A stretch of 57,688 nt of DNA, filler included, from Deltaproteobacteria bacterium (lineage in GTDB: Bacteria > CG2-30-53-67): the NCBI GenBank assembly GCA_013151235.1. It is 3 parts of 3 records of this genome, joined end to end, with 100 filler letters (N's around TTAATTAATTAA, not from the genome) between each part and the next. Parts side by side here need not be neighbours in the genome. Positions count along the whole stretch, not along the records: positions 37,858 to 57,688 come from JAADIO010000007.1; 2 more parts are not named here. One strand, 5' to 3'. The notes under the pieces were generated by a model. It saw only the letters and a list, made by a program, of their open reading frames with translations, searched no databases and was not told where the DNA came from. Positions 20,375 through 56,806 of the stretch are shown here, piece by piece (positions within the stretch are counted from its first letter, which is position 1; every line of letters starts with the position of its first letter). A program made the translations under genes and the position numbers.

Positions 20375-20474
20375 NNNNNNNNNNNNNNNNNNNNNNNNNN
20401 NNNNNNNNNNNNNNNNNNTTAATTAATTAANNNNNNNNNNNNNNNNNNNNNNNNNNNNNNNNNNNNNNNNNNNN
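20375..20474. other. Artificial contig spacer
   Basis: N44-TTAATTAATTAA-N44 (stop codons in all six frames). Confidence 0.97.
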
Positions 20475-37757: not shown

Positions 37758-37857
37758 NNNNNNNNNNNNNNNNNNNNNNNNNNNNNNNNNNNNNNNNNNN
37801 NTTAATTAATTAANNNNNNNNNNNNNNNNNNNNNNNNNNNNNNNNNNNNNNNNNNNN
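37758..37857. other. Artificial contig spacer
   Basis: N44-TTAATTAATTAA-N44. Confidence 0.97.
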
Positions 37858-39889: not shown

Positions 39890-40011
39890 GGCAAAAGAAC
39901 AAAGGCACAGAGGGGCAAAGGGGCAAAGGCACAGAGGCAAGGGCAAAGGCATGAACCACGGGGAACACGGGGAAAATACAAAATGAAAAACAAAAGATGA
40001 AAGATGAAAAG
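39890..40011 (+). repeat. Purine-rich dispersed repeat between tlyA and udg
   Basis: Same GGCACAGAGGGGCAAAGGGG units and 25-nt core as 25360-25500, followed by AAAGATG tandem units. Confidence 0.85.
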
Positions 40012-40715
40012 ATGAATCCCAACTCCCCCCGTGACGAAATGTTGCAGATCGTCGGTGATCTGAAGCGCCGTCTTTCTCTTCAGATGCCGGAAATCCCTTG
40101 GTGTGATGTGGTGCAGGAGGATGCGGAGAGGGGAGGTAAATCGATGGCGGCGGTGGATCATACTCTTGAACGTGCAACCACTCTGGATGAGGTGCGGGCG
40201 ATTCTCGGTGACTGCACCCGCTGCCGTCTGCATGAAAAACGGCAAAAGATTGTTTTCGGACAGGGCAATCCCGATGCCCGTCTGATGTTCGTTGGGGAAG
40301 GTCCCGGCGCCGATGAAGACCGTCAGGGGCTCGCCTTTGTCGGGAGGGCCGGGCAGCTTCTGACAAAGATCATTGCCGCCATCGGTTTGAGCCGTGAGGA
40401 GGTTTTTATCGCTAATATCGTTAAGTGCCGTCCACCGGGAAACCGGGATCCCCAGGAGGATGAGATCCGGGAATGCATCCCGTTTCTCAAGGCACAGATC
40501 AACGTGATCCGGCCGAAGATTATCTGTACACTCGGGGCGCCGGCGTCGAAGACGAGACCACCGCGCCGATCTCAAAACTGCGCGGCCGGTTCCACGACAT
40601 GGACGGGATTGCTGTGATGCCGACCTATCATCCAGCCTACCTTCTCCGGAATCCCGCGCAGAAGAGACCTGTATGGGAAGACATGCAAAAGGTGCAGGCT
40701 TTCTATCAGGAGTGA
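39997..40715 (+). pseudogene. Family-4 (Fe-S) uracil-DNA glycosylase, frameshifted near 40554
   Basis: C..C.L, GEGPG, VKCRPP.NR.P and TLG are in one frame; ISKLRG..PTYHPAYLLRNP continues in another. Confidence 0.85.
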
Positions 40716-40727
40716 GTCCGGAGCTTT

Positions 40728-42650
40728 ATGGAAGGGGGGAGGGGGGATTTGTCATCTTTCGACCGGTTCCGGCCGGCCGGCGATCGGGAAGGTTTCATGA
40801 AACAGATTCTTGAAGAGAGTGCAAAAGATGCCGGATCACTGAAATATGTTCGTCTTCACCGTCAGGAAATCGGTGAACTCTTCGGGGATCCTCTGCCGCG
40901 CCTGCCTCATGGGGATGAAGGAGCCGACGGCCGGTACAGAATCCATGTGGACTTTTTTGCCTCCTTCGGTCTTCTCGTGCGGGAATGGTTGCAGTCTGCC
41001 TCGCAAAGTGTTTCGGAATCCGTCGATCTTGCTGCCGGGGAGGATCCTTCCGGAAAACTCCTCGATGCGTTGACAAAGGTGGGAGTCCGGGCTGTCTTGC
41101 AGGGACGCCGGAATGGGCTATATAATCTCTTTTTCCTTTCTCTCTCCAAGGTCTTCGCCGAGGCCGTCAACGATTTCTATTCCCGGGGCGGCCGGAAGCC
41201 TTATCACAAGTTTCTTCTCCACCCGGCGCTCTCCGCCCTGTTGGTCCAGGTTCACCAACGGGTCCGGCAGGAAGTGGAGACCACAAAGCCCGGGGCCGCC
41301 GCCTTTCACCTCGGAACCGACTTCAACGATTCCCTGCTGCGGGCGGTCCTTTATGATCAGCTTTCCTGTGTGACCACCGAACGGGAAGATGTGACCGTCG
41401 AAAATGTCCTGGGTATTTGTAACCCTCGTTTTCCGCTTGCACTGGAAGGTTTCAGGGAGATTTATCGAATTCTGCGAAAGCGGCTCCAGCAGGTTCTGGA
41501 TGGGCGCCGGGAATCGGGAAGAGAGGAACTGGAAACGATACTCGGCGTTGAAGACCTGTCGGAGCAGTCTCCGGCCGTACTTCTGAATCAACCGGGCGTA
41601 CTCCGTTATCTCTTCCTGGATTATGAAAATGTAGGCAAACCGATTCGCTCTTCCCGGTTATTGCGCGGGCAGGGAATTTCTTACGCCTTCCTTTGCACAA
41701 CATATCTGGATCTGATTACCGTCCTGAAACGGAATGAAGTTATTCAGTTGCTGAAGAGACGTGTAGAGATCCTCTCCGATCGTCAGGCGGCCCGTTCCGA
41801 GGAACTCTACAGTGCCGGGAGTCTCTACCGTTTCTTTGAAGAGGGAAGGATCCTGAACGATGCACGGGAGGTCACCACCGTCTTCCTCGATCTGCGGGGG
41901 TTTACGAGCAAGTCCGAGGAAGCGATCTCCGCCGAGGAGTTGACGGATCAGCTCTATGCCCTCTTTGACCCGATTGTCCCGTTGGTGCATGAGTTCAATG
42001 GTGAGATCGATAAATTTACCGGTGACGGGATGATGATCACCTTCGGTGTGGGCGGCCGGAAAAAAGCGGACCCTTTGAATGCGCTTCGCTTGGCCATCCG
42101 GGTTCAGGAGAACGTCCGGGCCTTGCGCAGTTCCGGCAAAACGGAGTTTGAGATGGGAATCTCCATCCATTCGGGAACCGTTTTCGTGGCCCATTTCTTT
42201 GCCGGGGATGAGAGTGTTGACCGGACGGTGATCGGTCGGAATGTCAATATCGCCGGGCGTCTCTCCTCCGCCGGAGATCTTGTCCGGCATGAACGGGAGA
42301 AGCAGGAATTTGATGATCTGGTAAATTCTCTCTCGCTCAGTCTGGGACATGAAGAGGATCGGTCCGGGTTTCTGAAAACAGTCCGGACCCGGAAAAATAT
42401 CGGTCGGCCGATCTCCGGGGTTTCCGTCGATGGAGAGGGAAACCTCTACAACCAGGGAGTGGTCGTCAGCCATCAGACGGTGGAAACAATCGGGAAACTT
42501 GTAACGCTTCAGTCCGGCGAAGATCAGGAGATGGGCTTTCTCTATTTTCGCGATCCCGTTCTCGACCGGACCGTCAGCCTCTATTATGTCGGCGACGTCA
42601 AGTTCAAGGGAGTGGAGAGCGCCTTTCCGGTCTATGCGGTACTGCTGTGA
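40728..42650 (+). CDS. Class III nucleotide (probably adenylate) cyclase with a long soluble N-terminal region
   Basis: VFLDLRGFT, IDKFTGDG, GISIHSG, TVIG.NVNIAGRL, KFKG; no TM evident; start uncertain (40728 or 40797). Confidence 0.88.
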   Translation: MEGGRGDLSSFDRFRPAGDREGFMKQILEESAKDAGSLKYVRLHRQEIGELFGDPLPRLPHGDEGADGRYRIHVDFFASFGLLVREWLQSASQSVSESVDLAAGEDPSGKLLDALTKVGVRAVLQGRRNGLYNLFFLSLSKVFAEAVNDFYSRGGRKPYHKFLLHPALSALLVQVHQRVRQEVETTKPGAAAFHLGTDFNDSLLRAVLYDQLSCVTTEREDVTVENVLGICNPRFPLALEGFREIYRILRKRLQQVLDGRRESGREELETILGVEDLSEQSPAVLLNQPGVLRYLFLDYENVGKPIRSSRLLRGQGISYAFLCTTYLDLITVLKRNEVIQLLKRRVEILSDRQAARSEELYSAGSLYRFFEEGRILNDAREVTTVFLDLRGFTSKSEEAISAEELTDQLYALFDPIVPLVHEFNGEIDKFTGDGMMITFGVGGRKKADPLNALRLAIRVQENVRALRSSGKTEFEMGISIHSGTVFVAHFFAGDESVDRTVIGRNVNIAGRLSSAGDLVRHEREKQEFDDLVNSLSLSLGHEEDRSGFLKTVRTRKNIGRPISGVSVDGEGNLYNQGVVVSHQTVETIGKLVTLQSGEDQEMGFLYFRDPVLDRTVSLYYVGDVKFKGVESAFPVYAVLL

Positions 42651-42808: not shown

Positions 42809-43753
42809 ATGCCGAAACCGATGATCTCCGTCGTGGTTCCCGTCTATGACGAGGAGGGGAGCCTTGAAGTGCTTGCTTCTGAAATCCGAACGGTCCTTGG
42901 TCCCCTGCCGAACGAATACGAAGTGATTTTCGTGAATGACGGCAGCCGGGACGGTTCCACTGCGAGATTGGCGGCCTTGCATAAAGACGATCCCACGGTG
43001 AAGGTGGTGGAACTGCGAGATAACTTCGGGAAATCGGTCGCCCTGTCGGTGGGATTCGAGCACGCGAACGGGGAGATCATCTTCACCATGGACGCCGACC
43101 TGCAGGACGATCCGAAGGAGATTCCCCGGTTTCTGGAAAAAATAGAGGAAGGTTACGACCTTGTCTCCGGCTGGAAATTCAAGCGCCACGACCCGGTGGG
43201 CAAGACATTCCCTTCGAAGATCTTCAACCGGGTCGTTTCCATGATGACCGGTATCAAACTGCACGATTTCAACTGCGGTTTCAAATGCTACCGGCGGGTG
43301 GTCGTGCAAAATGTCCGGATCTACGGTGAACTGCACCGCTTCGTCCCGGTCCTGGCCCGCTGGAAAGGGTTCCGGGTGGCGGAGATCAAGGTCGATCATC
43401 ACCCGAGGCTGCACGGGGTATCCAAGTACGGAGTGGAGCGGTTTACGCGCGGGTTCCTCGATCTGCTGACAGTTCTCTTCCTGACCCGCTACCTGAAACG
43501 GCCGCTCCACCTCTTCGGGGGAATCGGCCTCTTCTGTCTGGTCCCCGGTCTGCTCCTGAGCGCATGGTTCGTGATTCAATGGCTGATCGGTGTTCCCATG
43601 CATGTCCGGCCCTTCATGGTCTTCGGCTGGGTGGCGATCATCCTCGGCATACAGTTCATCTCAATGGGGCTTTTGGGGGAGATGCTGATCCATTCGTTTC
43701 ACACCTATAAGCAGCGGGAAGACCCGTCGATTATCCGTAGAACCATGCTGTAG
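42809..43753 (+). CDS. GT2 polyprenol-phosphate glycosyltransferase (ArnC/GtrB/DPM1-like)
   Basis: VVVPVYDE, VNDGS.D, NFGK..AL..G, MDADLQDDP, DFNCGFK, ELHRF.P; two C-terminal TMs. Confidence 0.92.
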   Translation: MPKPMISVVVPVYDEEGSLEVLASEIRTVLGPLPNEYEVIFVNDGSRDGSTARLAALHKDDPTVKVVELRDNFGKSVALSVGFEHANGEIIFTMDADLQDDPKEIPRFLEKIEEGYDLVSGWKFKRHDPVGKTFPSKIFNRVVSMMTGIKLHDFNCGFKCYRRVVVQNVRIYGELHRFVPVLARWKGFRVAEIKVDHHPRLHGVSKYGVERFTRGFLDLLTVLFLTRYLKRPLHLFGGIGLFCLVPGLLLSAWFVIQWLIGVPMHVRPFMVFGWVAIILGIQFISMGLLGEMLIHSFHTYKQREDPSIIRRTML

Positions 43754-43831
43754 AATTTCTGTACGGAAGAAGAGATTGATCTACCGGGAAACAGGCCGAT
43801 ATGTACAGGATCCGCTCCCTGGAGTTGTGTA

Positions 43832-45130
43832 TTGTTCAATGGGATGATGAATAGAGGTGACACTCTTGCGAAGAAAAGGCTCCTGTCAAACTTCGCTTCG
43901 CTTTCCGTCCTTCAGGGGGCGAATTACCTGTTGCCCTTCATAACCCTTCCCTATCTTGTCCGTGTTCTTGGGCCGGAGAAGTTCGGGCTTGTCGCCTTCG
44001 CCCAGGCCTTTATACAGTATTTCAATATCCTGACCGATTACGGGTTCAACCTTTCGGCTACCCGCGAGATATCCATACACAGGGAAGATGGTAACGAGTT
44101 GTCCGGGATATTCAGCGCCGTCATGATGATAAAGCTTGCACTGCTGGCCCTGTCGGCGGTCATCATGTTATGCATCGTCTTTTCTTTCGGCAGGTTCTAT
44201 CAGCAACGGCTGGTATATTACTATGCCTTCGGCATGGTGGCGGGGCAGTGCATATTCCCCGTCTGGTTTTTTCAGGGGATGGAAAGGATGAAATATATCA
44301 CCTTCCTGAATATATCGGCCAGGCTGATCTTCACAGTCTGCATCTTTGTCTTCGTTCATGACGTGAATGATTACATCTATGTACCCCTGATCAACTCACT
44401 GGGTTTCATGACGGCAGGCATTCTCGCCTTCGTGATCGTCTTTAAGGACTTCCACGTGCGGTTTACACTCCCTTCCGTGGAAAGGATAAGGCACCAGTTG
44501 AAAGAAGGTTGGCATATATTCATCTCCACCGTTGCAATCAGCCTGTACACGACCTCCAATACGTTCATACTGGGGCTCCTGACCAATGACACCATCGTAG
44601 GGTACTATTCCGCGGCGGAGAAGATCATCAGGGCCGTACAGGGGCTGTTGACTCCGGTCTCCCAGGCGGTCTATCCCTATGTAAGCCGGTTGATTCATAC
44701 GGCGAGGGGAGAGGGGATCCGGTTCCTGCGCAGAATGACGGTCATGGTCGGAGGTGTAAGTTTCGTCCTTTCTGCGATCATCTTTTTCTCGGCGGGTATA
44801 ATCGTAAGGCTGGTTCTGGGCGGCCGGTATTCGGAATCCGTTGCGGTCCTGAGGATACTCTCCTTCCTCCCCTTTGTCATTGCGTTGAGCAACATATTCG
44901 GGATCCAGACCATGCTGAACCTGGGTTACAAGAAGGCTTTCTCCAGGATATTAATCGGTGCGAGTCTGTTGAATATCGTCCTTGCGTTCATCCTTGTTCC
45001 TCCGTTCCGGCAGACAGGCATATCCTTTGCCGTCCTGGTTTCGGAGACCGTCGTTACGGTTTCCATGTTTGTCTACCTGCAAGGAAGAGGGATCCGGATG
45101 TTGGGAGGCAAGGTATGCCGGACTATATAG
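43832..45130 (+). CDS. wzx: Wzx/RfbX-type oligosaccharide flippase
   Basis: N..SL..LQ..NYLLP.ITLPYLVRVLG...FG; DYGFNLSATR; WFFQGME.M; VGYYSAAEK; multi-TM. Confidence 0.92.
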   Translation: MFNGMMNRGDTLAKKRLLSNFASLSVLQGANYLLPFITLPYLVRVLGPEKFGLVAFAQAFIQYFNILTDYGFNLSATREISIHREDGNELSGIFSAVMMIKLALLALSAVIMLCIVFSFGRFYQQRLVYYYAFGMVAGQCIFPVWFFQGMERMKYITFLNISARLIFTVCIFVFVHDVNDYIYVPLINSLGFMTAGILAFVIVFKDFHVRFTLPSVERIRHQLKEGWHIFISTVAISLYTTSNTFILGLLTNDTIVGYYSAAEKIIRAVQGLLTPVSQAVYPYVSRLIHTARGEGIRFLRRMTVMVGGVSFVLSAIIFFSAGIIVRLVLGGRYSESVAVLRILSFLPFVIALSNIFGIQTMLNLGYKKAFSRILIGASLLNIVLAFILVPPFRQTGISFAVLVSETVVTVSMFVYLQGRGIRMLGGKVCRTI

Positions 45131-46263
45131 TAGTGGGATCAGGTTTCGCGGGAAGTGTAATCGCAGAGCGGATCGCGAACGTCCTTGACCGCAATGTCCT
45201 GGTGATAGAGAAAAGGAGTCATGTCGGCGGCAACTGTTATGATTCCAGGGATGCAACCGGTATCCTGGTCCACCGTTACGGCCCTCATCTCTTCCACACG
45301 AACCGGAAGGACGTCTTTGACTATCTTTCCGGTTTTACCGGCTGGCGTACATACCATCACCGGGTCCTGGCCTGTGTAGGCGACAGGAAGATACCCCTGC
45401 CGTTCGATCTGAAGACATTACACATGGTATTTCCTGAAGAGACGGCGGCAGGGATCGAGAGCAGACTCGTCAGACGTTATCAATACGGCACAAAGGTTCC
45501 CATCCTGGATCTCATGAAGGAGGATGACCCCTCCTTAAGGCTGCTTGCGGATTATATATACAACAATATATTCCTGAATTACACGGCAAAGCAGTGGGGA
45601 GTAAGGCCGGAGGATGTGGATCCTGCGGTGACCGCCAGGGTGCCGGTCCTTGTCGGCAGGAACGACGGATATTTCGATGATCGTTACCAGGCGGTTCCTG
45701 AAGAAGGCTATTCCAGGATGTTTGAATGTATGCTGGATCATCCGAAGATTGAGCTGATGCCGGGCACCGACTCCGGTGATGTGCTGTCCGTCAACCCCAC
45801 GACCGGCAGGATATATTTCAAGGGGGTGGAGTTCAGGGGCAAGGTCGTCTTCACCGGCATGATTGATGAACTCTTCGGTTTCAAACTGGGGGCGCTTTCC
45901 TACCGTTCCTTGGACCTGGAGTTCGAGACGCTTGATCAGGAATATTACCAGGAGGTCGCCACCGTTAATTATCCCAACGATCATGCCTTCACGAGGATCA
46001 CCGAGTTCAGGCATATTCACCCGGTGGATGTAAACAGGACGGTCATCCTGAAAGAATATCCGAAGACATACAGGGCGGGAAGGGATATACCTTACTATCC
46101 TGCTCTTACGAATGAAACCGCTGATCTATATGAAAAATACAAGGCTCTTGCCGCCCGGTCAGAAAACCTGGTCCTCGTCGGGAGACTGGCGGAGTACAAG
46201 TATTATGACATGGACGATATCGTCAAGAGGTCGCTGGATCTGTTCGAGGAAGAAATCAGGTGA
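45115..46263 (+). CDS. glf: UDP-galactopyranose mutase
   Basis: VGSGFAG, GGNCYD, H.YGPHLFHT, NYT.KQWG, YRSL, TRITEF, PYYP, GRLAEYKYYDMD. Confidence 0.96.
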   Translation: MPDYIVVGSGFAGSVIAERIANVLDRNVLVIEKRSHVGGNCYDSRDATGILVHRYGPHLFHTNRKDVFDYLSGFTGWRTYHHRVLACVGDRKIPLPFDLKTLHMVFPEETAAGIESRLVRRYQYGTKVPILDLMKEDDPSLRLLADYIYNNIFLNYTAKQWGVRPEDVDPAVTARVPVLVGRNDGYFDDRYQAVPEEGYSRMFECMLDHPKIELMPGTDSGDVLSVNPTTGRIYFKGVEFRGKVVFTGMIDELFGFKLGALSYRSLDLEFETLDQEYYQEVATVNYPNDHAFTRITEFRHIHPVDVNRTVILKEYPKTYRAGRDIPYYPALTNETADLYEKYKALAARSENLVLVGRLAEYKYYDMDDIVKRSLDLFEEEIR

Positions 46264-46272
46264 GGAGAAGCT

Positions 46273-47301
46273 GTGAAAGATAGTGTATGTGCTGTCGTGG
46301 TTACCTATAACAGAAAACATCTTCTCATTGAATGCCTTGAAGCGCTTTTGAACCAGGCAAGACCGATACAGGCCATCTGTCTGATAGATAATCTTTCAAC
46401 CGATGGAACGCCTGAGTTGCTTTCAGCAAAAGGGTATATAGGTGATCTCCTTCCGGTCGATCTGCTGGAGCCTTTTGAACAGAAATGTGAGGTGAATAAT
46501 TCGGCCGATGGAAAGCCGGTAGAGATTTACTATGTGCGGATGCACGAAAATGTTGGTGGTGCGGGTGGATTCCATGAAGGACTAAAAAGAGCGTATGAAA
46601 GAGGATTTGATTGGTTCTGGTTGATGGATGATGATGCCGAACCCACGCAAGGATCCTTGGCGAAGTTGCAGGAACATTTCGGCGCGAATGATATCGCGGC
46701 ATTGGCATGCAGTGTACTGTCGGATGACGGTCGGATAGCCTATCATCACAGAGGTCTCATAGATCTGAGACGTGTTTTCCCTCTTCTACAAAAGCCGTTA
46801 TTGCAAGAAAGCTACACATCTTCCGTGGTAAAAATAGATATGGCCTCTTTCGTGGGATTGTTGGTCGGCAGAGAAGCCGTGAGCCGGATAGGTTATCCCA
46901 AGAAAGAATTTTTCATTCATCATGACGATGTCGAATACTCCATGCGACTGAGAAAAGCGGGAGAGATGCTTCTTGTTCCCGGTAGCAGGATGATCCATAA
47001 AGAGGCTGCACAATGTATACAAAAAAGATTTTTTGGGATGGATGTCGCCAGGATACCTTTTAATCGTTTTTGGCTTACATATTATGGTATGAGAAATCTG
47101 GTATGGCTGGGAAATCGCTACTCAAAAAACAGGGTTGGTTTCTATTCAGGATGGACCATCAAGTTGTTACGCACTATAACGGGGATATTGCTGCTGGACG
47201 ATAATAAGTTTCAACGCATTAGATTAGTTGTTCAAGCTTATCGTGACGGGTTGGGAGATACTTTTGACAATGATAAGCCGCGCAAGTATTCTTTTCTGTA
47301 A
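46273..47301 (+). CDS. GT2 glycosyltransferase, GlfT1-like (putative galactofuranosyltransferase)
   Basis: AVVVTYNR..L..CL, N.GGAGGF..G, WLMDDD, SFVG, DDVEY; directly after glf. Confidence 0.8.
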   Translation: MKDSVCAVVVTYNRKHLLIECLEALLNQARPIQAICLIDNLSTDGTPELLSAKGYIGDLLPVDLLEPFEQKCEVNNSADGKPVEIYYVRMHENVGGAGGFHEGLKRAYERGFDWFWLMDDDAEPTQGSLAKLQEHFGANDIAALACSVLSDDGRIAYHHRGLIDLRRVFPLLQKPLLQESYTSSVVKIDMASFVGLLVGREAVSRIGYPKKEFFIHHDDVEYSMRLRKAGEMLLVPGSRMIHKEAAQCIQKRFFGMDVARIPFNRFWLTYYGMRNLVWLGNRYSKNRVGFYSGWTIKLLRTITGILLLDDNKFQRIRLVVQAYRDGLGDTFDNDKPRKYSFL

Positions 47302-47334
47302 ATGTCTATTCTGTATACGAACGGTTGATCTATT

Positions 47335-48450
47335 ATGAGAATCTGTTACTTCGGCACGTACGAAAAGGACTATCCCCGCAACCGGATTGTGATCCGTGGG
47401 CTGCGCCGCAGCGGGATCGAGGTTGTGGAATGCCACTTCCCGCTCTGGGAGCGGAGGGAGGACAAGACCGGAGGTTTTCTCTCGGCGGGATCGTTGCTGG
47501 TCGTCGCCCTCCGTCTCATCCGGGCCTACCTGGTCCTTGCCGTGCGGTTCTTCCGGGCAGGAAGTTTTGATTGCCTTATGGTAGGATACATCGGGCAGAT
47601 GGATATCTTCCTCGCGAGATTCCTCCTTATGTTCAGAAGGCGCCCCCTGATATTCAACCCCCTCGTATCACTCTACGATACCCTCGTGATTGACCGGGGA
47701 ATCTTTCGCAGGGGTTCCATCACGGCCGGCCTTCTTTTCCGGATAGACCGGTGGTCCTTGCAACTGGCGGACCATGTGATCCTCGACACGAACGCCCATA
47801 TCGACTATATCTCCGGACTGTTCGGTATAGACCGCGCTAAATTCATCCGGGTCTTCGTCGGCGCCGACGAGGATATCTTTTTCCCGAGGGAGGCTCCGGA
47901 GAGGGACGACGGATCCTTCCGGGTCCTCTTCTACGGCAAGTTCATTCCGCTCCACGGCATCCATCACATACTTCATGCAGCTAAGGCCCTGGAGGGGGAT
48001 CCAACGATTCGTTTCCGGATCATAGGGCGGGGACAGCTCTCTGGCGAGATCCATGCACTCGCAGGAAAGCTGGATCTGAAGAACGTGGAGTTCGTCGATT
48101 GGGTTCCCTACGAAAAACTCCCGGAGGAGATCGCCGCGGCTGATCTTTGCCTCGGGATCTTCGGCGACACGGAAAAGACGCAGAGGGTGATCCCGAACAA
48201 GCTCTTCCAGGCCCTGGCCTGCGGCAGGCAGGTCTTGACGCTCGATACGCCGGCGGTGCGGGAGTTGGGGCCGGATCGCTCCGGATCCCTTTACACGGTT
48301 TTCTCACCTGGAGATCTTGTGGGAGTTATCCGCTATCTGGCGCTGCATCCTTCGGGACCAGGCATGCCCCTTGGTGGGGATATGAGAAGGCCGGCCTATG
48401 CCTGTCATGATCTTGTTGAGCCGCTTACCGCTGTCTTGGGCTGTTTGTAG
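47335..48450 (+). CDS. GT4 glycosyltransferase
   Basis: FYGKFIPLHG, D.CLGIFG...K..RVIPNK..QALA.G. Confidence 0.88.
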   Translation: MRICYFGTYEKDYPRNRIVIRGLRRSGIEVVECHFPLWERREDKTGGFLSAGSLLVVALRLIRAYLVLAVRFFRAGSFDCLMVGYIGQMDIFLARFLLMFRRRPLIFNPLVSLYDTLVIDRGIFRRGSITAGLLFRIDRWSLQLADHVILDTNAHIDYISGLFGIDRAKFIRVFVGADEDIFFPREAPERDDGSFRVLFYGKFIPLHGIHHILHAAKALEGDPTIRFRIIGRGQLSGEIHALAGKLDLKNVEFVDWVPYEKLPEEIAAADLCLGIFGDTEKTQRVIPNKLFQALACGRQVLTLDTPAVRELGPDRSGSLYTVFSPGDLVGVIRYLALHPSGPGMPLGGDMRRPAYACHDLVEPLTAVLGCL

Positions 48451-48515
48451 GAGAGTATGCCCGTACTCCTGGATTTACAGGGTGTGTTTTTCATTGATTG
48501 CAAGAGGAGCTGTTC

Positions 48516-49430
48516 ATGAGGTGCAGGAGCCTTGCCGTGGTTCTTAACTGGAAGAGGGGCGGTATGACATGCCGCTGCCTGGAGTCTCTTGCAAAGGGCG
48601 GTTGGGAGGGAAGGGTCTGTGTCGTGGATAACGGATCGGCCGACTCATCCGTGGAGGTGATCCGTGAATATGTCGAAGGACGGGAAGGAATCGTTCTCGT
48701 CGAACTTCCGGAAAACATGGGTTTTGCCGGGGCAGTGAACCGTGCAGTGAAGGCCGCCGGGCATGAGGCGGAGCGTGTACTTATTATCAACAATGATGCC
48801 TTCGTGGAGGATGACGCGGTACGGTGTCTTTGGAAGGCGATGGATGATGATCCGGCGATAGCCGTGATAGGTCCTAAGATCATGCAGCCCGGGGAGCCGC
48901 CACGGATCGATTCGGCAGGATGCCGGGGGATCATTCAGCTTGCACAGCCCTTCATGCGGGGGCATGGGAAAGCGGACAGGGGGCAGTATGACCATCCGGA
49001 AGATGTGGAATACGTGACCGGTGCATGCCTGATGGTGCGTATGGATGTATTTGAAAGGGTCGGCGGTTTCGACGAAGATTTTTTCATGTATTTCGAGGAC
49101 TGGGACTTCTGCCGCAGGGTCCGGCAGTCGGGGGGGCGATGCGTCTTCCTTCCTTCCGCCGTGGTTACGCATATAGGATCCGCTTCCACCGGCGATACGA
49201 CCCCTTTCTATCATTACCATCATGCCCGCAGCAGGATCCTCTTTGCCAGGAAACACCTCTCTGCCTCCGTGTTCTGGTGTCTCTTCGTTCCTTACATGTT
49301 CTTTTACCGCGTTATCTTCCAGGGAATCCGCATGATCGTGGCTGGGATGCCCCGGAACGCCGCTGCCATCCTCTACGGGGTTTTGTGGCACCTCGGGGTG
49401 CGGAGAGATGAAAGGCCGGGCTTGTCATGA
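48516..49430 (+). CDS. GT2 glycosyltransferase (WbbL-like)
   Basis: VVLNW, VVDNGS.D, N.GFAGAVN, INND, TGAC, GGFDE.FFMY.ED.D; ATG behind GAGGAG. Confidence 0.88.
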   Translation: MRCRSLAVVLNWKRGGMTCRCLESLAKGGWEGRVCVVDNGSADSSVEVIREYVEGREGIVLVELPENMGFAGAVNRAVKAAGHEAERVLIINNDAFVEDDAVRCLWKAMDDDPAIAVIGPKIMQPGEPPRIDSAGCRGIIQLAQPFMRGHGKADRGQYDHPEDVEYVTGACLMVRMDVFERVGGFDEDFFMYFEDWDFCRRVRQSGGRCVFLPSAVVTHIGSASTGDTTPFYHYHHARSRILFARKHLSASVFWCLFVPYMFFYRVIFQGIRMIVAGMPRNAAAILYGVLWHLGVRRDERPGLS

Positions 49431-50545
49431 AGGTAGCTATTGCGGCAATTGCGGGCGCCCTTGGAGGACCGCGCAGTTATGCACGGGAACTCGTCCGTGC
49501 CTTGACCGGGCTGGCCGGAGAGGACGACTTCTACGTGCTGACCGATGATCGTGCCGCCTGGGATGATGCGGGCGGTGAGGTTATGGAACTGCCGATGCGT
49601 TCTTCCTACACGCGCCCGCTCTGGGATCACTGGAAGGTGCCTCGGGCGTTGAGGTCCCTGGATGTCGATCTGTTCCACCATACGAAGAACGTGGTGCCGC
49701 TCTTTTGTCCCGCGAAATGCGTGGTGACCATCCACGACCTTGCACCTTTCCTTTATCCCGATACCTTCACCTTCCTGCAGGGTATCCACCTGCGCACACA
49801 TATCCGTTTTGCCGCAAGAAGGGCGGATGCGGTCATCGCCGTCTCCTCTAACACCCGGGATGATATCATCCGCCATTTCCATGTGCCGGAGAACCGCGTC
49901 CGTGTCGTATATAACGGGGTATCTCCGGTTTTTTCCCGCTCCCCCGGCGACGGGGAACTGGCGGGATGCCGTGCAAGGTATCGCCTCCCCGGCCGGTTCA
50001 TCCTCTATGCCGGGACGATCCAGCCCCGGAAGCAGGTGGATATGCTGATCCGGGTCTATCACCGGCTGAGGGAGGAGGAAGGAATCCCGCACCATCTGGT
50101 GGTCGCGGGACGCATGGGGTGGAAGTCGGGCGGGCTCCATGAAACTGTCCGGTCCCTGGGATTGAACGACGTGGTCCACTTTACCGGCGCCGTCGACGGT
50201 CACGATCTTCCCCTGATCTACAGGTCGGCCGAGGTCTTTGTCAACCCAAGCCTCTACGAGGGGTTCGGCCTTACCTGTGTCGAGGCGATGGCATGCGGGA
50301 CGCCGGTGGTGGCCTCCGGCGTCTCTTCGATCCCTGAAGTGGTGGGGGATGCCGGCCTGCTCTTCGATCCGTCGGACGAGGAATCCCTCTTCCGGGCGCT
50401 TCTGACGGTCATCCGTGAGGAAGGGCTGCGGGAACTGCTCCGGCAAAAAGGAATTGACCGTGCCCGAAAATTCTCATGGGAAAAGGCCGCGGCGGGAACG
50501 CTGGAGGTCTACAGGTCAGTATTGCAAAACAGGGGAGGCGCCTGA
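49427..50545 (+). CDS. GT4 glycosyltransferase (MtfB/WbaZ mannosyltransferase-like)
   Basis: VVTIHDL, GTIQPRK, PSLYEGFGL..EAMACGTPV, FSWE. Confidence 0.9.
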   Translation: MKVAIAAIAGALGGPRSYARELVRALTGLAGEDDFYVLTDDRAAWDDAGGEVMELPMRSSYTRPLWDHWKVPRALRSLDVDLFHHTKNVVPLFCPAKCVVTIHDLAPFLYPDTFTFLQGIHLRTHIRFAARRADAVIAVSSNTRDDIIRHFHVPENRVRVVYNGVSPVFSRSPGDGELAGCRARYRLPGRFILYAGTIQPRKQVDMLIRVYHRLREEEGIPHHLVVAGRMGWKSGGLHETVRSLGLNDVVHFTGAVDGHDLPLIYRSAEVFVNPSLYEGFGLTCVEAMACGTPVVASGVSSIPEVVGDAGLLFDPSDEESLFRALLTVIREEGLRELLRQKGIDRARKFSWEKAAAGTLEVYRSVLQNRGGA

Positions 50546-50546
50546 T

Positions 50547-52634
50547 ATGGGTACTTTATTAACGGTCGAGCGCCGCCGCAGGGCCTTCTTCTATATGGTG
50601 CTTGTCGCGGTCTGCGCAGCGGCTGTCTATCTGAACACGTTCACGAACGGCTTCGTCATGGACGACCGGACGATGATCGCCGAAAACGGCGCCATACGGT
50701 CCCTTGGAAATATATGGAATATACTGCTCCACGATTACCGCCCCTTGCGAACCATAAGCTATGCCCTGGACTATGCCGCCTGGGGGCTGAATCCCTTCGG
50801 TTATCACCTGACCAACATCTTCCTGCATGTTCTGAACTGCCTGTGCCTTTACGGGATTGTAAGGATTCTTTTCGGAAGCGAAAGGACCGCCCTTTTCGCT
50901 TCGCTCCTCTTCGCCGTCCATCCTCTCCATACCGACGCCGTGAGTTATCTCTCCGGACGGCGGGATGTCCTTTTTTCATTCTTCTATCTTTTAGGCTTCT
51001 ACTTCTTCCTCCGCTACAGGAGGCGGAAAAAAAGGAAGCGTTATCTGGCAATTGTCCTGCTCGCTTTCCCGCTGAGCATGCTCAGCAAGGAAATGGCCGC
51101 CTCATTCCCGCTCCTCCTGCTGGGGTACGACATGATTTTTCCAGGGGCCGGTCCGGCGGAGGATGGCAAGGCGGGTCCGGGCCGGAGGTTCCGCCGTTCG
51201 GTTCTGCCGGTCATGCGGCGCCACTTCCTGTTTTATCTTTTTCTCTTTTCCATGGTGCCGGCCTTTGCCTATTATTACATATGGATGCGCCATGCCTCGG
51301 AGATGGTGACCGCAAAGGGTGTGCAATGGTGGGGCGGCAGCGTCCTGTCGAATTTCATGACCGTTGCATCCGTCCTGGCACACGATGTCCGCCAGACCCT
51401 ATTCCCGGTCCGGCTGGTTGCCGATTATTTTGCCTTTCCCCTTGTCACTTCGGGATCGGATCCGGAGTTCATCAGGTCGGTCCTGCTGCTCATCACGGCA
51501 GGCGCACTCTTTTTGATCGCCCTTCGCCGTGAGAAGAGAATAGCCTTTTCTCTCTTTTGGTTCTTTGTAACGCTTCTTCCGGTGATGCAGATAATCCCTC
51601 ACCACGATCTCCTGGCGGATCATTTTCTATACCTGCCTTCCGCGGGTGCCTGCATGATTGGAGGGTTCCTCTTCGACAGGGTCATGAACCATGGCAAACT
51701 TGCGGGAGTTGCAGCAGCGCTTCTGATCCTGACGCTGGGATGTTTCTCGGTCCGGACATGGCGCAGGAACCGGGTCTGGAAGAACAATATCACAATCTAT
51801 TTGGATGACCTGAAGACCTATCCGGATAATAACCGTGTACGCCTTCTCCTTGGAATGATGTTCATGAAGGCACATCTCTACGACATGACCGAAGACGAAT
51901 TTGGTAAGGCCGAAAGAGGAGAGCGTTTTTTTCCTGAGGCCTACGCATATGATGGTTTTATCCATTACAAACGCGGGGAATATAAAAAAGCGCTCCGCCT
52001 GGAGCTAAAGGCGCTTTCTGTAAAGGATCTGCCCATGGCACATTTTGTTCAGGGGCTGGTGTATGAACGGTTTGAGCAATGGCGGCAGGCGTTTGATGCC
52101 TACGGGAAGGTTTCGAAGGGGCGTTTCCACACTGCGGCGCTCTTCGGCCGGTTCAAGTGCGCCCGCCTCCTGTGCGATAGGGAAGGAGCAAGGCTTTCGG
52201 CCCGGGCATACCTTGCGGCCACGGGACCGCTGGTGCAGGGGGGCGGCCCGGGCAGGGACGTCCTGCAGAAACGTGCACTGTGCAGGGAATGGCTGAACAG
52301 GCGGGCGGACCGGCGGAAAGATTGTGAGGACCGTCCAACCGGGTCCGGCAGGACGGGGCTCCGGCACCTTGCTGATACGATTCATTCTTATGAAAGAAGA
52401 ATTGCAAAGGCGCCTGATGATGCGGAGGCGCACCGGCGGTTGGGGATGATCTACCTGAAGAAGGTGGAGGATCTCCCCCGCGCCTACAGACATCTTGCCC
52501 GGTCGCTGCGGCTTGCCCCGGGGCAGTCCCATGCGGTGAAGATGAAACGGATCACGGAGGACCTTAATCGGCTCTATGAGAACTACTCCCGCAAAACCGG
52601 GATCAGTATTACCGTTCTGCTGGGGGGCCGGTAA
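50547..52634 (+). CDS. TMTC-like GT-C membrane glycosyltransferase with C-terminal TPRs
   Basis: GFVMDD, YRPL, GYHLTN..LH, LFAVHPLHT.AV..LSGR, SKE, LYLPS, RN..W, followed by TPR helices. Confidence 0.85.
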   Translation: MGTLLTVERRRRAFFYMVLVAVCAAAVYLNTFTNGFVMDDRTMIAENGAIRSLGNIWNILLHDYRPLRTISYALDYAAWGLNPFGYHLTNIFLHVLNCLCLYGIVRILFGSERTALFASLLFAVHPLHTDAVSYLSGRRDVLFSFFYLLGFYFFLRYRRRKKRKRYLAIVLLAFPLSMLSKEMAASFPLLLLGYDMIFPGAGPAEDGKAGPGRRFRRSVLPVMRRHFLFYLFLFSMVPAFAYYYIWMRHASEMVTAKGVQWWGGSVLSNFMTVASVLAHDVRQTLFPVRLVADYFAFPLVTSGSDPEFIRSVLLLITAGALFLIALRREKRIAFSLFWFFVTLLPVMQIIPHHDLLADHFLYLPSAGACMIGGFLFDRVMNHGKLAGVAAALLILTLGCFSVRTWRRNRVWKNNITIYLDDLKTYPDNNRVRLLLGMMFMKAHLYDMTEDEFGKAERGERFFPEAYAYDGFIHYKRGEYKKALRLELKALSVKDLPMAHFVQGLVYERFEQWRQAFDAYGKVSKGRFHTAALFGRFKCARLLCDREGARLSARAYLAATGPLVQGGGPGRDVLQKRALCREWLNRRADRRKDCEDRPTGSGRTGLRHLADTIHSYERRIAKAPDDAEAHRRLGMIYLKKVEDLPRAYRHLARSLRLAPGQSHAVKMKRITEDLNRLYENYSRKTGISITVLLGGR

Positions 52635-52645
52635 AAGGCGAGAGC

Positions 52646-55354
52646 ATGGTGAAAGGGATAATGGACATGGATCGTGGAACTCTATTCGGAGATCGTGACG
52701 GGAAATACCACAGGGAAGGGCTGATCATCCTTTTGCTGGTGGCGCTTTCATCTGTTGTTTACATGAACTCCATCTTCGGAGGTTTCGTCCTTGACGACAT
52801 GGTCCTGATCCAGAAGAACCCGGTGATCCATTCTCTTTTCGATATCCGGCTCCTGACCTACCGTTGGCTAAGGACCTTCTCCTATGCCGTCGATTACTCT
52901 CTCTGGGGGCTCAATCCGGTCGGGTACCATCTTTCCAATATTTTTTACAACACCCTGACGGTCCTGTTGGTCTATTTCCTCACGAAGCGATTGACGAAGA
53001 ACCTGACGATCACCTTTGTTGCGTCTCTTCTCTTCGCTCTGCATCCGATTCATACGGAAGCGGTCAGTTATCTCTCCGGGCGGCGGGATATTCTGTCCGC
53101 ACTGTTCTACCTGCTCGGATTCATCTTGTACCTCAAGGGGAGGGGAGGCGGGGGGCGCCTCTATTATGCCGGAGCCTTCCTTGCCTATCTGCTCAGCATT
53201 TCCGCCAAGGAGATGGGGGTGACGCTCCCGGTCCTGATCGTGGCATATGAAATCCTGCATGAAATAGATGAAGACTGGGATGCCCCCGCTTCCACGATTC
53301 GTTTGTTTGTGCGTGCCGTCCGATCCAACCTGGCCCGCTTCCGGTGGCTCATCACATTGTCCATTTTGCTGGTCGCGGGATATCTCTACGTCGATCTCTT
53401 TCTTGAACATGCCTCCGGGATGGTCAGTGCAAAGGGAATCAAGTGGTGGGGCGGGAATCCGGTCTCCAATTTCGCGACCGTGGCCACGGTGCTTGCTTCC
53501 TACATGAAGAAACTGCTCTTCCCCGTGGTTCTCCGCTTCGACTACCGGATGTTTCCGCTCCGGCACTCCCTCCTGGATATGGGGGTAATCTCATCCCTGG
53601 CACTGCTTGCCGGGTTGCTTCTGCTTTCTTTCGTATTTATCCGAAGGCGTCCTGCCGTAACATTCGGAATATGGTTCTTCTTCATCACATTATTGCCGGT
53701 CATGCAGATCATCCCGCATCACATGCTGATGGCGGAGCATTATCTCTATCTTCCCTCTTACGGATTCTGCCTCTTGGCCGGAATCCTTGCGGAGAGGATC
53801 CATTACAGGCATAAACTCATTATTCTCTTCCTCGCTGCCGGGGTTCTTGTCTGCCTGCTCTTTTTCGTCCGTACTGTTGCCCGGAACCAGGACTGGCTCG
53901 ACACATTCACTCTGACGGCGGAGGGGCTTCGTCACGATCCGAAGGAGCCTGTTTATCACTTTTTCCGGGGGCACGCCTACCACCTCGTTCACCTTGAGCG
54001 GAGCGCCTGGCGGGAGTTGGAAAAGGCGGTTTATCCGAACCTCTACCGGGACTCGAAGCTGTTCGCGATCAGGGCCGTGATCCTTTTCGAGCAGGGGGAA
54101 TATGAGAAAGGAGAGAAAGAGACAAAGAAAGCCCTTGACATAGACCCCGATGATCAAATGGCGCTTGTTAATGGAGGCTATTTTGCCTTAATGATGGGTG
54201 ACAATCAAAAAGCCCTTCACTATTATCTGAAGGTGCGGCCGGATTATGAAGGAGGGGGACACCTTCAGAACATAGCAAAGATCTACCTGGAAGAAGGAAA
54301 GGTCAAACGGGCCGAGAAAACCATGAGACGGGCTCTTTCTCTCCATTCCTACAGGGCTGTATTTCACTATGACTTGGCCGAGGTCCTGATCAGGGAACTT
54401 AAGTTTGACCAAGCAGCGGAGCAGTACAAAAAGGTTCTGCGTTTTGCAAAGAACGACCCCGAACCCTCCGAATACTTGAAGGATGTTCCACAGAAGCTTA
54501 AGTGGGCTGAACGGTTCAGGCAAAGGCTGTCTGCCGTAAAGAGCAATATGGGGGGCGGAGAAACGGGGAGAGAGATCGCCTATGTCCGGCTGTATCTTGA
54601 TGCCGGGAACAATGGCGAGGCGGCCAGGAGACTGAGGTCCGCAATAGGTGCGGGAGATGATTCTTATGGGACACGCTGTCTTTTGGGATCTGCTTTGCTG
54701 AGAGAGGGCAAGAGGGATGAGGCGCTGAAGGCAGTTGAGGGCATTAAACTTGCGAACGGGATGCTCTCCGATGAGGAGCTTGCAACACTGGTCGATATCT
54801 TCTCGCAGAATCTCAGGATTAACAAGGCCATTGATTTTGTGCGTGAACTGATCCGGCGGCACCCGGGGAAGAGCTCATACAGGGATCAGTTTGCTGCATT
54901 GAAAGGGATGGGTGAACTGCAGAAGAGATGGCGTCGCCTTGATTATGAAGGAGATCCGTTTGGCGCTGCCATTGCCGAGGGTGATCTTTATGTGAAGGTT
55001 GGAAGGATAAAAGAGGCGCTGCGGTGCTATGAGTCGGCTATCCAACAGAAACCTGATGATCCGGATCTGCTCCGAAAGCTTTATAGCTTTTACGAGCCGA
55101 GGGGATACCCGTACCGGAGGAAGGCAATCCAGACCGGGCGTACTCTCCTGAAAATCGATCCGAAGGACTCACGGATCGCCCTCCGCCTCTGGCGGTTCTA
55201 TTATGATAAGGTTGAGGACTACGAAAGTGCTCTCATCTATCTCGAAAGAGCGGTCAAGGCCGATCATGATCGGGCGGACAATCGGAAAACAAGATCGGCC
55301 CTTAAAACCTTGAAACAATATGTGCGGACATACAAAAGTGAGGTTGTACAGTGA
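52646..55354 (+). CDS. TMTC-like GT-C membrane glycosyltransferase with a long TPR region (paralog)
   Basis: GFVLDD, GYHLSN, LFALHPIHTEAV..LSGR, AKE, DY, HYLYLPS, RN.DW; multiple TPRs. Confidence 0.85.
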   Translation: MVKGIMDMDRGTLFGDRDGKYHREGLIILLLVALSSVVYMNSIFGGFVLDDMVLIQKNPVIHSLFDIRLLTYRWLRTFSYAVDYSLWGLNPVGYHLSNIFYNTLTVLLVYFLTKRLTKNLTITFVASLLFALHPIHTEAVSYLSGRRDILSALFYLLGFILYLKGRGGGGRLYYAGAFLAYLLSISAKEMGVTLPVLIVAYEILHEIDEDWDAPASTIRLFVRAVRSNLARFRWLITLSILLVAGYLYVDLFLEHASGMVSAKGIKWWGGNPVSNFATVATVLASYMKKLLFPVVLRFDYRMFPLRHSLLDMGVISSLALLAGLLLLSFVFIRRRPAVTFGIWFFFITLLPVMQIIPHHMLMAEHYLYLPSYGFCLLAGILAERIHYRHKLIILFLAAGVLVCLLFFVRTVARNQDWLDTFTLTAEGLRHDPKEPVYHFFRGHAYHLVHLERSAWRELEKAVYPNLYRDSKLFAIRAVILFEQGEYEKGEKETKKALDIDPDDQMALVNGGYFALMMGDNQKALHYYLKVRPDYEGGGHLQNIAKIYLEEGKVKRAEKTMRRALSLHSYRAVFHYDLAEVLIRELKFDQAAEQYKKVLRFAKNDPEPSEYLKDVPQKLKWAERFRQRLSAVKSNMGGGETGREIAYVRLYLDAGNNGEAARRLRSAIGAGDDSYGTRCLLGSALLREGKRDEALKAVEGIKLANGMLSDEELATLVDIFSQNLRINKAIDFVRELIRRHPGKSSYRDQFAALKGMGELQKRWRRLDYEGDPFGAAIAEGDLYVKVGRIKEALRCYESAIQQKPDDPDLLRKLYSFYEPRGYPYRRKAIQTGRTLLKIDPKDSRIALRLWRFYYDKVEDYESALIYLERAVKADHDRADNRKTRSALKTLKQYVRTYKSEVVQ

Positions 55355-55589
55355 ATGGTGATGGGGGAGAGTTCCTGATCGTAACGGGAGATCCGGAGAG
55401 GGATTGACATTTTTCGTCTCCCGACTGTATATTGTGTCAGTCTTTGTATCCTTATGATATTTAACGATAAAACACAACAGGGTCTCTTAATTCGCAGATA
55501 GATTTGAAGTATGTTGGCCGAAATTGTCCGGATGTTGCGTCTATAGGCCGGTTGCATCGGAAAGAGTATTGTGAGATAAAAGCTATGAA

Positions 55590-55602
55590 TATCAATGTGT
55601 TA
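55590..55602 (+). promoter_or_regulatory. IHF site upstream of the pilin promoter
   Basis: TATCAATGTGTTA matches WATCAANNNNTTR. Confidence 0.65.
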
Positions 55603-55629
55603 TGTCTAAATATCAACCGGTCTGTTACG

Positions 55630-55646
55630 TTGGCACAGGCCTTGCT
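55630..55646 (+). promoter_or_regulatory. sigma54 promoter of the major pilin
   Basis: TTGGCACAGGCCTTGCT; GAC...GTC palindromic elements near 55405-55440 may be PilR-type sites. Confidence 0.85.
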
Positions 55647-55767
55647 TGTATAACCGTGCAGTTGCAGAGTGATAAATTACAATCTTTCATACAAAGGAGG
55701 TGAGTGGCTTCATTACAGTATCGTTAGAGGTTTTTACCGTCTTTAAACAACGTAAAGGAGTTTTGAA

Positions 55768-56253
55768 ATGATGACTATCAACAAGAATGAACATGGTTTT
55801 ACCCTGATCGAACTGATGATCGTTGTGGCGATCATCGGGATCCTGGCCGCTGTGGCTATTCCCGGCTATATCGGTTTCCAGGAGAAATCAAGAAAAGGTG
55901 CGATCATTGGTGCTGCATCGAACGCTGCGGCGGAAATTCAGGGTTGGCTGAGCGTCTCGCTCAACCCCAATGGTAATTTGAGGGAAGTGGACACTGACGG
56001 AAACGGTGTTGTGGATAGTAGTGATGCCACCGATTCAACACTGAACGGTGCAGTAGCCACGACATATATCACTATGAGGACGGCTATGGGAGATACGTCG
56101 CCCTGGAGTACGAGTGCTTTATGGGTGTCAGGTTCTTCAGCTCAACAAGGTCAGATTGCGCTCACTCAGTCTGGAAACAGTGTTACTATTCGTGCCTATG
56201 ATAATAGTTCCACACCTGTTCTTTTGTACACCAAGACGGTCAGCGCCGACTGA
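55768..56253 (+). CDS. pilA: Type IVa major pilin
   Basis: [23 protein letters not shown]; own sigma54/IHF promoter, AAAGGAG RBS and terminator. Confidence 0.9.
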
Positions 56254-56274
56254 TCTGATGATCTCTTGAACTTT

Positions 56275-56320
56275 GAGACGGGGTGGGCCGGATTTAGGCC
56301 CACCCCTGTTTCTTGTTTCT
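56275..56320 (+). terminator. Terminator after pilA
   Basis: GGGGTGGGCC-GGATTTA-GGCCCACCCC followed by a T-rich tail. Confidence 0.8.
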
Positions 56321-56416
56321 GGGGAGATATCGTGGTTATAGGGAAGGGAAATAATGTTTTCAACTAAACGGCCGCTCCGGAGCAGTAACCGATTGATATT
56401 CCGAAGAGGAATGATC

Positions 56417-56806
56417 ATGAAAAGAGAGGATGGTTTTTCCCTGATTGAACTGATGGTGACCATCGCCATTATCGGGATCCTCGCCGCCATTGCCATCCCG
56501 ACCTACACCGGGTATCGTCTCAAGGCGGAGCGATCCATCGCCTGGACGGACCTGCAGAGTCTGCGGCTCCTTGAAGAGCAGTATTATGCGGAGAATAATG
56601 CCTATGTCGAAGGTGCCGATACGGCAACTTTAAAAACCAACCTTCCCGGTTTTCAGCCCGATTCCGGGTCGCAATACGATTATGATGTGGCCTTTTCAGG
56701 AACGAACAACCAGACCTTCACTGCTAGAGCCACCCGCAAATCCGGTACCGGCAGTGATACCGGCTCCCCCTGGACGATCGATAATACCAACACCCGGAAC
56801 TGGTAG
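56417..56806 (+). CDS. Type IV minor pilin (PilE-like)
   Basis: [29 protein letters not shown]...L......EQYY; F...AT. Confidence 0.88.
   Translation: MKREDGFSLIELMVTIAIIGILAAIAIPTYTGYRLKAERSIAWTDLQSLRLLEEQYYAENNAYVEGADTATLKTNLPGFQPDSGSQYDYDVAFSGTNNQTFTARATRKSGTGSDTGSPWTIDNTNTRNW

Follow-up and report, generated by a model that had tools for sequence, protein, structure and literature searches.

What do the glycosyltransferase (GT) genes that stand ahead of the major pilin gene in a deltaproteobacterium of the lineage CG2-30-53-67 (assembly GCA_013151235.1) modify, and from which sugar donor? The DNA analysed here (the window, 57,688 nucleotides including filler) consists of three stitched contigs separated by N-flanked spacers at 20375-20474 and 37758-37857, across which adjacency is artificial; the block of interest, 42809..56806, lies entirely on one contig, which ends in miaB at 57688. 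All 11 predicted genes of the block were confirmed by open reading frame (ORF) calls, at the predicted place and on the plus strand, and the annotation of the 11 proteins by Pfam and NCBIfam bore out the co-directional series described in the original prediction, i.e. a family 2 glycosyltransferase (GT2), wzx, glf, a GlfT-like GT2, three more GTs and two large proteins joining a GT-C fold to tetratricopeptide repeats (TPRs), followed by two pilins. We propose that this block is probably a variant of the TfpW-type pilin O-glycosylation of Pseudomonas aeruginosa, distinguished by its donor synthase and by an exchangeable cassette of Wzx and GT genes. The proposal turns on four genes, which are as follows.

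42809..43753, plus strand: GtrB/ArnC/DPMS-type GT2, candidate polyprenol-phosphate sugar synthase, with a DxD motif and two C-terminal transmembrane (TM) helices; conserved core.
50547..52634, plus strand: TMTC/TfpW-like GT-C with TPRs, copy 1 (GTC1), likely start 50547; PMT/PMT_2 and TPR matches; motifs DD, YRP, RRD, KEM, ADY and ADH-x-x-Y.
52646..55354, plus strand: TMTC/TfpW-like GT-C with long TPRs, copy 2 (GTC2); motifs DD50-51, YRW, RRD, KEM-x-x-T, Y-x6-P, FDY and EH-x-x-Y.
55768..56253, plus strand: major type IVa pilin PilA, presumed acceptor; N-methyl pilin without Cys, 29% Ser/Thr in its globular part.

Both large proteins are GT-C-fold enzymes with a DD loop and C-terminal TPRs; they are homologues of the TMTC proteins, not strict members of GT105. 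First, the membrane part of GTC2 (AlphaFold model, mean pLDDT 89) matched AglB (Z 19.6, root-mean-square deviation 5.5, 331 residues aligned), Pmt2 (Z 19.1, 5.0, 333) and ArnT (Z 17.9, 4.5, 317) in fold searches, the first match outside the GT-C fold coming at Z 8.2; no TMTC or TfpW entry stood among the matches of these searches, which excludes nothing. The GT-C domain, compared by sequence with the PDB, gave no match, and the 60 matches listed for the family alignment concerned the TPRs only. Second, D50/D51, R146-D148 and K188-E189 are invariant in 33 of 33 homologues, and a comparison with the TMTC motif table given in PMC7801869 showed that M1 (DD), M3 (RxD) and M4 (KE) are kept in both copies, M4 reading KEM and not KE(T/Q). 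Third, DUF1736 (PF08409) is detectable in the family: it scores 15.7 bits on GTC2, below its curated cut-off of 27, and matches 23 of the 33 aligned homologues at E<=0.05, with a best value of 8.6e-8; one DUF1736 cluster of eukaryotic origin reaches a score of 0.94 in Atlas. The fold, the DD/RxD/KE motifs and the sub-cut-off DUF1736 match thus support the TMTC-like identity first suggested for the two proteins. They share with the animal TMTC1-4 enzymes (GT105) the combination of GT-C and TPRs, but the M2 motif SHKSYRP is reduced to YRP/YRW, its SHKS part being gone, the DW of M5 reads DY, and His stands for a strictly conserved Arg; there is neither mannose evidence nor a cadherin acceptor at this locus. 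The family comprises 158,548 clusters (50% identity, E<=0.001), and the named proteins met in a homologue search came only from Geobacteraceae, Desulfuromonadaceae and Desulfobacter. A search for a TfpW counterpart gave no matching NCBIfam model and no plasmid match, and no genome in sets of 27 and 261 had FimV above cut-off, which would have marked a gammaproteobacterial reference; a 646-aa TPR cluster of Pseudomonadota is a possible lead.

The closest functional precedent is TfpW, the pilin D-arabinofuranosyltransferase of the P. aeruginosa group IV strains Pa5196/PA7, described in 10.1101/2020.04.19.049825 as a 646-aa protein with 11 TM helices, an essential DDX motif, a periplasmic TPR and a YX6PFX7P motif, which is encoded directly after pilA and uses polyprenyl-monophosphate arabinose from the DPPR synthase/DprE1/DprE2 pathway. 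Compared through that description, the two systems have in common a GT-C enzyme whose first periplasmic loop carries DDX, a C-terminal TPR domain and a place next to pilA, as well as a Ser/Thr acceptor and a polyprenyl-monophosphate donor, both of which are proposed for our locus. The original prediction, which held bacterial homologues to be uncharacterised, was therefore overstated, TfpW having by description the same 11-TM/DD/TPR build and full-length prokaryotic TMTC homologues having been noted in 2021, as not well characterised (PMC7801869). None of the papers in our literature search, most subscription papers lying outside it, draws a link between TfpW and TMTC, reports a test of a family member linked to GT2/Wzx or describes XapA as a GT-C enzyme.

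TfpW and the present enzymes differ in several respects. The Y-x6-P core of the TfpW motif occurs in GTC2 only (Y286-P293), with no F after the Pro and with the second Pro at +11; this core is present in 30 of the 34 rows of the wider family alignment. Our locus has two GT-C copies upstream of a separately promoted pilA, whereas TfpW is encoded downstream of pilA and co-transcribed with it; it adds Wzx and four soluble GTs; and its TPR regions exceed that of TfpW in length (695 and about 900 aa versus 646). As donor synthase it offers the first GT2, the DPPR synthase, DprE1 and DprE2 being absent from the block and encoded on another contig before another paralogue; that pathway is unlinked to tfpW in P. 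aeruginosa as well. By analogy, the proposal that the block would work like TfpW is well supported.

The donor side rests on the first GT2. It has the two C-terminal TM helices by which GtrB-like synthases are recognised, and its best NCBIfam models are ArnC (188 bits) and PgfS (159 bits), both below cut-off, as is the AglJ model (75 bits). We scanned GTDB contigs for patterns of the clade closest to GTC1 and GTC2, and the best 80 of 234 stretches gave 75 loci, many of them on short contigs. An orthologue of the first GT2 occurs in 35 of these loci, in 28 of them within 500 bp, which bears out the predicted coupling to a polyprenol-monophosphate sugar synthase. The GT2 being the constant partner of the clade, this result supports a monophosphate donor, not a pilin acceptor. 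What can be stated plainly is that the GtrB/ArnC-type GT2 travels with the GT-C clade and that the cassette precedes a sigma-54-driven major pilin; the donor, the flippase, the acceptor and the periplasmic position of the TPRs we infer.

Between the first GT2 and the GT-C genes lie the six following genes, the nine glycosylation genes, both GT-C genes included, being separated by -16 to +78 bp.

43832..45130, plus strand: Wzx (MOP) flippase of the O-antigen/exopolysaccharide (EPS) type; PF01943, 231 bits.
45115..46263, plus strand: glf, UDP-galactopyranose mutase, producer of UDP-galactofuranose (UDP-Galf); TIGR00031, 473 bits, above cut-off; variable part.
46273..47301, plus strand: GT2, weakly GlfT1-like (89 bits, cut-off 330), of low GC content (44%); variable part.
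47335..48450, plus strand: family 4 glycosyltransferase (GT4), with orthologues in both near relatives (82% and 76%).
48498..49430, plus strand: GT2, whose start may be 48516; 27-30% identical to the GT2s found at the same place in the relatives.
49427..50545, plus strand: GT4; variable part.

The enzyme encoded by glf is the sole one of the block to score above an equivalog cut-off. The comparison with two near relatives, G001, which belongs to the same genus, and G005, which belongs to the same family, separated the constant from the variable genes, the cassette being present at the same site in both. The first GT2 has orthologues there (82% in G001, 77% in G005), as have GTC2 (69% and 67%) and both pilins; the GTC2 orthologue precedes pilA in G005 and is separated from it by one further TMTC-like gene in G001, the site carrying three GT-C copies in G001 and two in G005. 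The Wzx slot is filled at all three orthologous sites, G001 and G005 each having its own unrelated, non-orthologous Wzx, and the remaining GTs are only 26-30% identical between our genome and the relatives. In neither relative was glf or the GlfT-like gene found at this site, hence glf is specific to the source genome and the Galf that had been taken as part of the system does not belong to the conserved core. The locus is therefore a fixed frame (lipid-phosphate-sugar synthase, Wzx slot, GT-C and pilA) with swappable middle GTs, like a serotype locus. In G017, from another family outside the class, the order is pilR-pilin-pilin-TMTC-GT2-DUF2304-GT2-GT4-GT4-methyltransferase-wzx-TMTC. As a separate observation, glf adjoins a TMTC-like gene in two more lineages, alongside a GlfT-like GT2 in one (L112:1134-6414) and alongside pilA, a GT9 and a DPPR synthase in the other (L227:3781-10232).

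On the acceptor side, pilA starts 413 bp 3' of the second GT-C gene and is accompanied by three further features.

55631..55646, plus strand: sigma-54 -24/-12 promoter-like site in the 413-bp gap before pilA; the single match in the window, 0.03 being expected.
56280..56306, plus strand: intrinsic-terminator-like hairpin after pilA, with a 10-bp stem, nine GC pairs and a T-rich tail.
56417..56806, plus strand: second pilin, a ComP/PilE-like minor pilin (PF16732, 51 bits), likely start 56417.

The promoter scan used what we take to be the sigma-54 consensus. Its own sigma-54 site and terminator mark pilA as a separately expressed major pilin. Comparable sigma-54-like sites lie 5' of the pilin in G005 and G017, and a PilS/PilR-like pair (a PAS histidine kinase and a sigma-54 response regulator) lies 3' of the pilins in G001. 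The pilins do run in the direction of the cassette, as first claimed, but they probably do not belong to the same operon, given the 413-bp gap with its sigma-54 site and the terminator after pilA. A metagenome scan with PilA returned two contigs, which at 1.0 and 2.7 kb are too short to show any neighbouring genes; a search of sequencing runs listed none, which is evidence neither for nor against.

From the pilin side, we surveyed 101 genomes of the phylum of one reference genome (which we take to be Desulfobacterota), 75 of which had a pilA match and 60 of which were fetched, with a profile hidden Markov model trained without the test loci; the second-best pilA match, away from the contig end, was used for two genomes (G144 and G055). 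In 10 of the 60 genomes a strong TMTC-like gene lies no more than 3.6 kb from pilA, to which one weak 36-bit hit can be added. These genomes hold 166 family matches, spread over 33 of them, from which 0.52 pilA-linked matches would be expected by chance within 4 kb; the enrichment is thus about 20-fold, as an estimate from genomes that are not fully independent and with a counting profile that included the positive loci. At 8 of the 10 linked loci there is a candidate synthase of a monophosphate-lipid donor, DPPR-synthase-like in four cases and a DPMS/AglJ-like GT2 in four, most scoring below cut-off. A cross-domain survey covered 40 of 63 eligible genomes (three were dropped, their pilins lying at contig starts, and 20 were not included); G000 (the source genome), G001, G005 and G017 were set aside, G004 and G009 (source class) and G291 (genus of G017) were included, and a TMTC-like gene lies within that distance of pilA (3.6 kb) in four of the 40. 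In the Geobacter-type family of G138, a TMTC-like gene lies 3' of pilA in 26 of 27 short-pilin and in 0 of 11 long-pilin genomes, a count made on related genomes and with 20 weak matches unlisted.

Two observations from these surveys deserve mention in their own right. At L218:9980-16814 (G138), the short pilA is accompanied by a 130-aa partner, a TMTC-like protein of 578 aa, proteins of 263 and 288 aa, an ABC ATPase, a DPPR-synthase-like protein and a GT2, an order and a set of sizes matching xapA-xapF of G. sulfurreducens, where xapA is annotated merely as a putative membrane protein in the account of PMC3495685. At L179:7527-11926, pilA has a TMTC-like gene on its 5' side and a Wzy_C (TfpO/PglL-like) gene on its 3' side, possibly reflecting two pilin glycosylation routes.

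Several results weigh against a dedicated pilin glycosylation system. First, in the clade of the enzymes themselves only 4 of the 75 loci have a pilin at a distance of 10 kb or less, two of which are the near relatives, the pilin lying about 9 kb away in the other two; the predicted linkage to pilA is thus conserved at the level of the family (10/60, 4/40 and 26/27), not in the enzymes' own clade. Second, in a quick tree of 87 sequences (53 of 140, with short flanks, left out), GTC1 and GTC2 fall into a group with 98% support, in which all 38 members other than the near relatives lack a pilin link, and the pilin-linked label changes 12 times on the tree, seven of them forced; by this tree the pilA link was repeatedly gained or lost, and our locus looks like a lineage-specific recruitment. 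Third, six TMTC-like matches occur in G004, a member of the same family, yet its three pilins have no such gene within about 10 kb. Fourth, single genomes carry up to 30 copies, which implies many further acceptors for the family. Fifth, pilA appears, from its flanking signals, to be transcribed apart from the cassette, unlike the co-transcribed pilA-tfpW. Sixth, the Arg of the TMTC motif M7 (ERxxY), a proposed donor-phosphate binder, is His in both copies (EH/DH), H365 being invariant in the clade; the position reads ER or DR in 22 of the 34 rows of the wider family. Seventh, the Ser/Thr richness of PilA does not discriminate. The count in the original prediction (28 Ser/Thr in the last 87 residues) is correct, with 14 Ser and 14 Thr, but as an argument for glycosylation it fails: the Ser/Thr fraction in the phylum sample is 0.26 for TMTC-linked pilins (n=6) versus 0.23 for unlinked ones (n=47; p=0.12), and 10 of the 47 unlinked pilins reach 0.29. 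We therefore rejected this richness as evidence, linked and unlinked pilins not being separated. In a comparison limited to the lineage, thus to few and related genomes, the cassette-adjacent pilins have 25-29% Ser/Thr versus 10-22% for nine pilin-like ORFs of G004, G009 and G014, whose pilins have no neighbouring TMTC-like gene. As a side observation on copy number, four genomes (G102, G103, G064 and G081) have 15-30 TMTC-like copies, often in tandem arrays.

The rest of the source genome bears on the alternatives. The block has no Wzy, ligase or initiating phosphoglycosyl transferase (PGT), as predicted, since none of the 11 proteins matches Wzy_C, Bac_transf or Glycos_transf_4. This absence carries little weight as an argument, and we rejected it as evidence, because the genome encodes, outside the block, three WbaP-type PGTs (Bac_transf), one WecA-like protein and four Wzy_C proteins. 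There is no STT3 match in the genome, and no GtrA-type flippase (0 PF04138 matches, at 99% completeness). Besides GTC1 and GTC2, the family has two more members there. One, on contig C22 (L157:345-5053), lies 3' of DPPR-synthase-, DprE1- and DprE2-like genes, a WecA-GGDEF-like fusion standing just upstream and the contig ending soon after; the other, on contig C26 (L158:5307-10294), is divergent from a PEP-CTERM-like protein gene, wzx and an amino-sugar aminotransferase gene.

With these data, an alternative that keeps the pilin as acceptor and changes the donor is unlikely. It follows a TfpO/PglL-like logic, in which an unlinked PGT would start a unit on undecaprenyl diphosphate (Und-PP), the soluble GTs would build it, Wzx would flip it and one GT-C would transfer it to the pilin, the sugar that the first GT2 loads on undecaprenyl monophosphate (Und-P) being a side branch used by the second GT-C. 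The presence of Wzx at all three orthologous sites and in G017/G291 fits this scheme, as does the account in PMC11127046 that Wzx normally flips Und-PP-linked units, together with the PGTs encoded elsewhere in the genome, the two or three GT-C copies per locus, which permit a division of labour, and the AglB/STT3/PglB entries among the best fold matches. However, TMTC and TfpW use monophosphate donors, and the annotated pilin-linked loci contain no PGT, versus monophosphate synthases in 8 of 10. This alternative agrees with the TfpW-like proposal on the acceptor and differs from it on the donor, so the weights given to the two overlap.

We regard with similar doubt the possibility that the acceptor is a polysaccharide. 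Here the GT-Cs would add, in the periplasm, the Und-P-linked sugar of the GT2 to the O-antigen of lipopolysaccharide or to EPS, as in the GtrABC and Citrobacter GT136 systems, wzx-glf-GTs being an ordinary O-unit cluster that uses the unlinked WecA/WbaP and ligases, and pilA a mere neighbour. By the description in PMC11127046, those systems likewise combine an Und-P-sugar synthase, a flippase and a GT-C, and MATE/MOP-family flippases can serve established three-component systems. Furthermore, our Wzx resembles O-antigen/EPS flippases (about 34-38% identity to plasmid-borne ones, one of which adjoins glf), three Bac_transf, a WecA-like and four Wzy_C proteins are present in the genome, and acidobacterial members of the clade have an ABC-2 (Wzm/Wzt-like) exporter beside them, and no pilin, in 17-19 of the 75 loci. 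Against this, the present locus has no GtrA flippase, a TPR in place of a carbohydrate-binding domain, extra soluble GTs and a pilin neighbour; the polysaccharide-modifying GT-Cs presented in PMC11127046 carry carbohydrate-binding modules, the word tetratricopeptide being absent from its available text; the characterised DD and TPR relatives (TMTC and TfpW) modify proteins; the family is enriched on the pilA side; and, unlike a Wzx/Wzy O-antigen/EPS cluster, the block has no Wzy, the four Wzy_C proteins being encoded on other contigs. Less probable still is a general protein O-glycosylation, in which GT2 and GT-C would form an ancient module acting on numerous exported proteins rich in Ser/Thr, of PEP-CTERM or S-layer-like type, the pilin being at most one of its targets: the GT2 orthologue and not the pilin is constant across phyla (35/75 versus 4/75), the C26 paralogue faces a PEP-CTERM-like gene and the family is huge (158,548 clusters), but GTC2 and its orthologues keep their position towards pilA in G000, G001 and G005 while the middle genes turn over, and the two other paralogues of the genome could serve other acceptors.

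We thus retain the TfpW-like proposal, and in the pathway that we consider the probable one the GT2 makes an Und-P-linked sugar, which is flipped and then transferred by a TPR-guided GT-C to Ser/Thr residues of periplasmic PilA. In such a pathway, the GT2 would load a sugar from a nucleotide sugar onto Und-P; the soluble GT2/GT4 enzymes might lengthen this lipid-linked sugar, with Galf in this genome, and it would be flipped, most simply by Wzx; one or both GT-C enzymes would bind PilA through their TPR domain and transfer the glycan in the periplasm; and the second GT-C copy may add to the glycan or act on a different acceptor. The exchange of middle genes between relatives, like that of serotype cassettes, would vary the pilus coat, and by analogy with P. 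aeruginosa only, for which the precedent is described in 10.1101/150227 and PMC11841053, the pilus glycan may shield the cells from phages.

A bolder version, which we hold as possible and rather doubtful, makes the block a bacterial O-linked counterpart of the haloarchaeal dolichol-phosphate pathway, the GtrB-like GT2 priming Und-P, the soluble GTs building on it an oligosaccharide that varies between strains and contains Galf in this genome, Wzx flipping the product and the TMTC-like enzymes acting as pilin oligosaccharyltransferases. In Haloferax volcanii, according to PMC3871713, AglJ/G/I/E build an oligosaccharide on dolichol phosphate, which is flipped and transferred to protein by AglB, a GT-C enzyme. 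This is a precedent for an oligosaccharide built on a monophosphate lipid and transferred by a GT-C to protein; it differs from our case in being N-linked and archaeal and in using an STT3-family enzyme, the source genome having no STT3 match.

Two neighbours upstream of the block complete the description of the locus. The gene at 40728-42650 of the window, conserved ahead of the cassette in G001 and G005, encodes a protein resembling class III adenylate/guanylate cyclases, whose N-terminal part of 380 residues has no annotation. At 39997-40715, a uracil-DNA glycosylase gene is broken across two frames near 40560-40600, by a frameshift or an assembly error; its counterparts in the relatives are single ORFs of 239 and 243 aa.

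If the TfpW-like proposal holds, it would give a function to a very large and mostly unannotated bacterial family (158,548 clusters), would connect the human TMTC enzymes with TfpW, the only protein of this architecture to have been studied, and would show that swappable pilus glycan cassettes exist far beyond Pseudomonas. The xapA match in the Geobacter-type family also matters for the interpretation of the xap operon in studies of electron transfer. Should the Und-P oligosaccharide route be true as well, TfpW, GTC1/GTC2, the Geobacter XapA and the animal TMTCs would be one ancient family of TPR-guided O-glycosyltransferases with interchangeable donors, comprising over 100,000 bacterial clusters.

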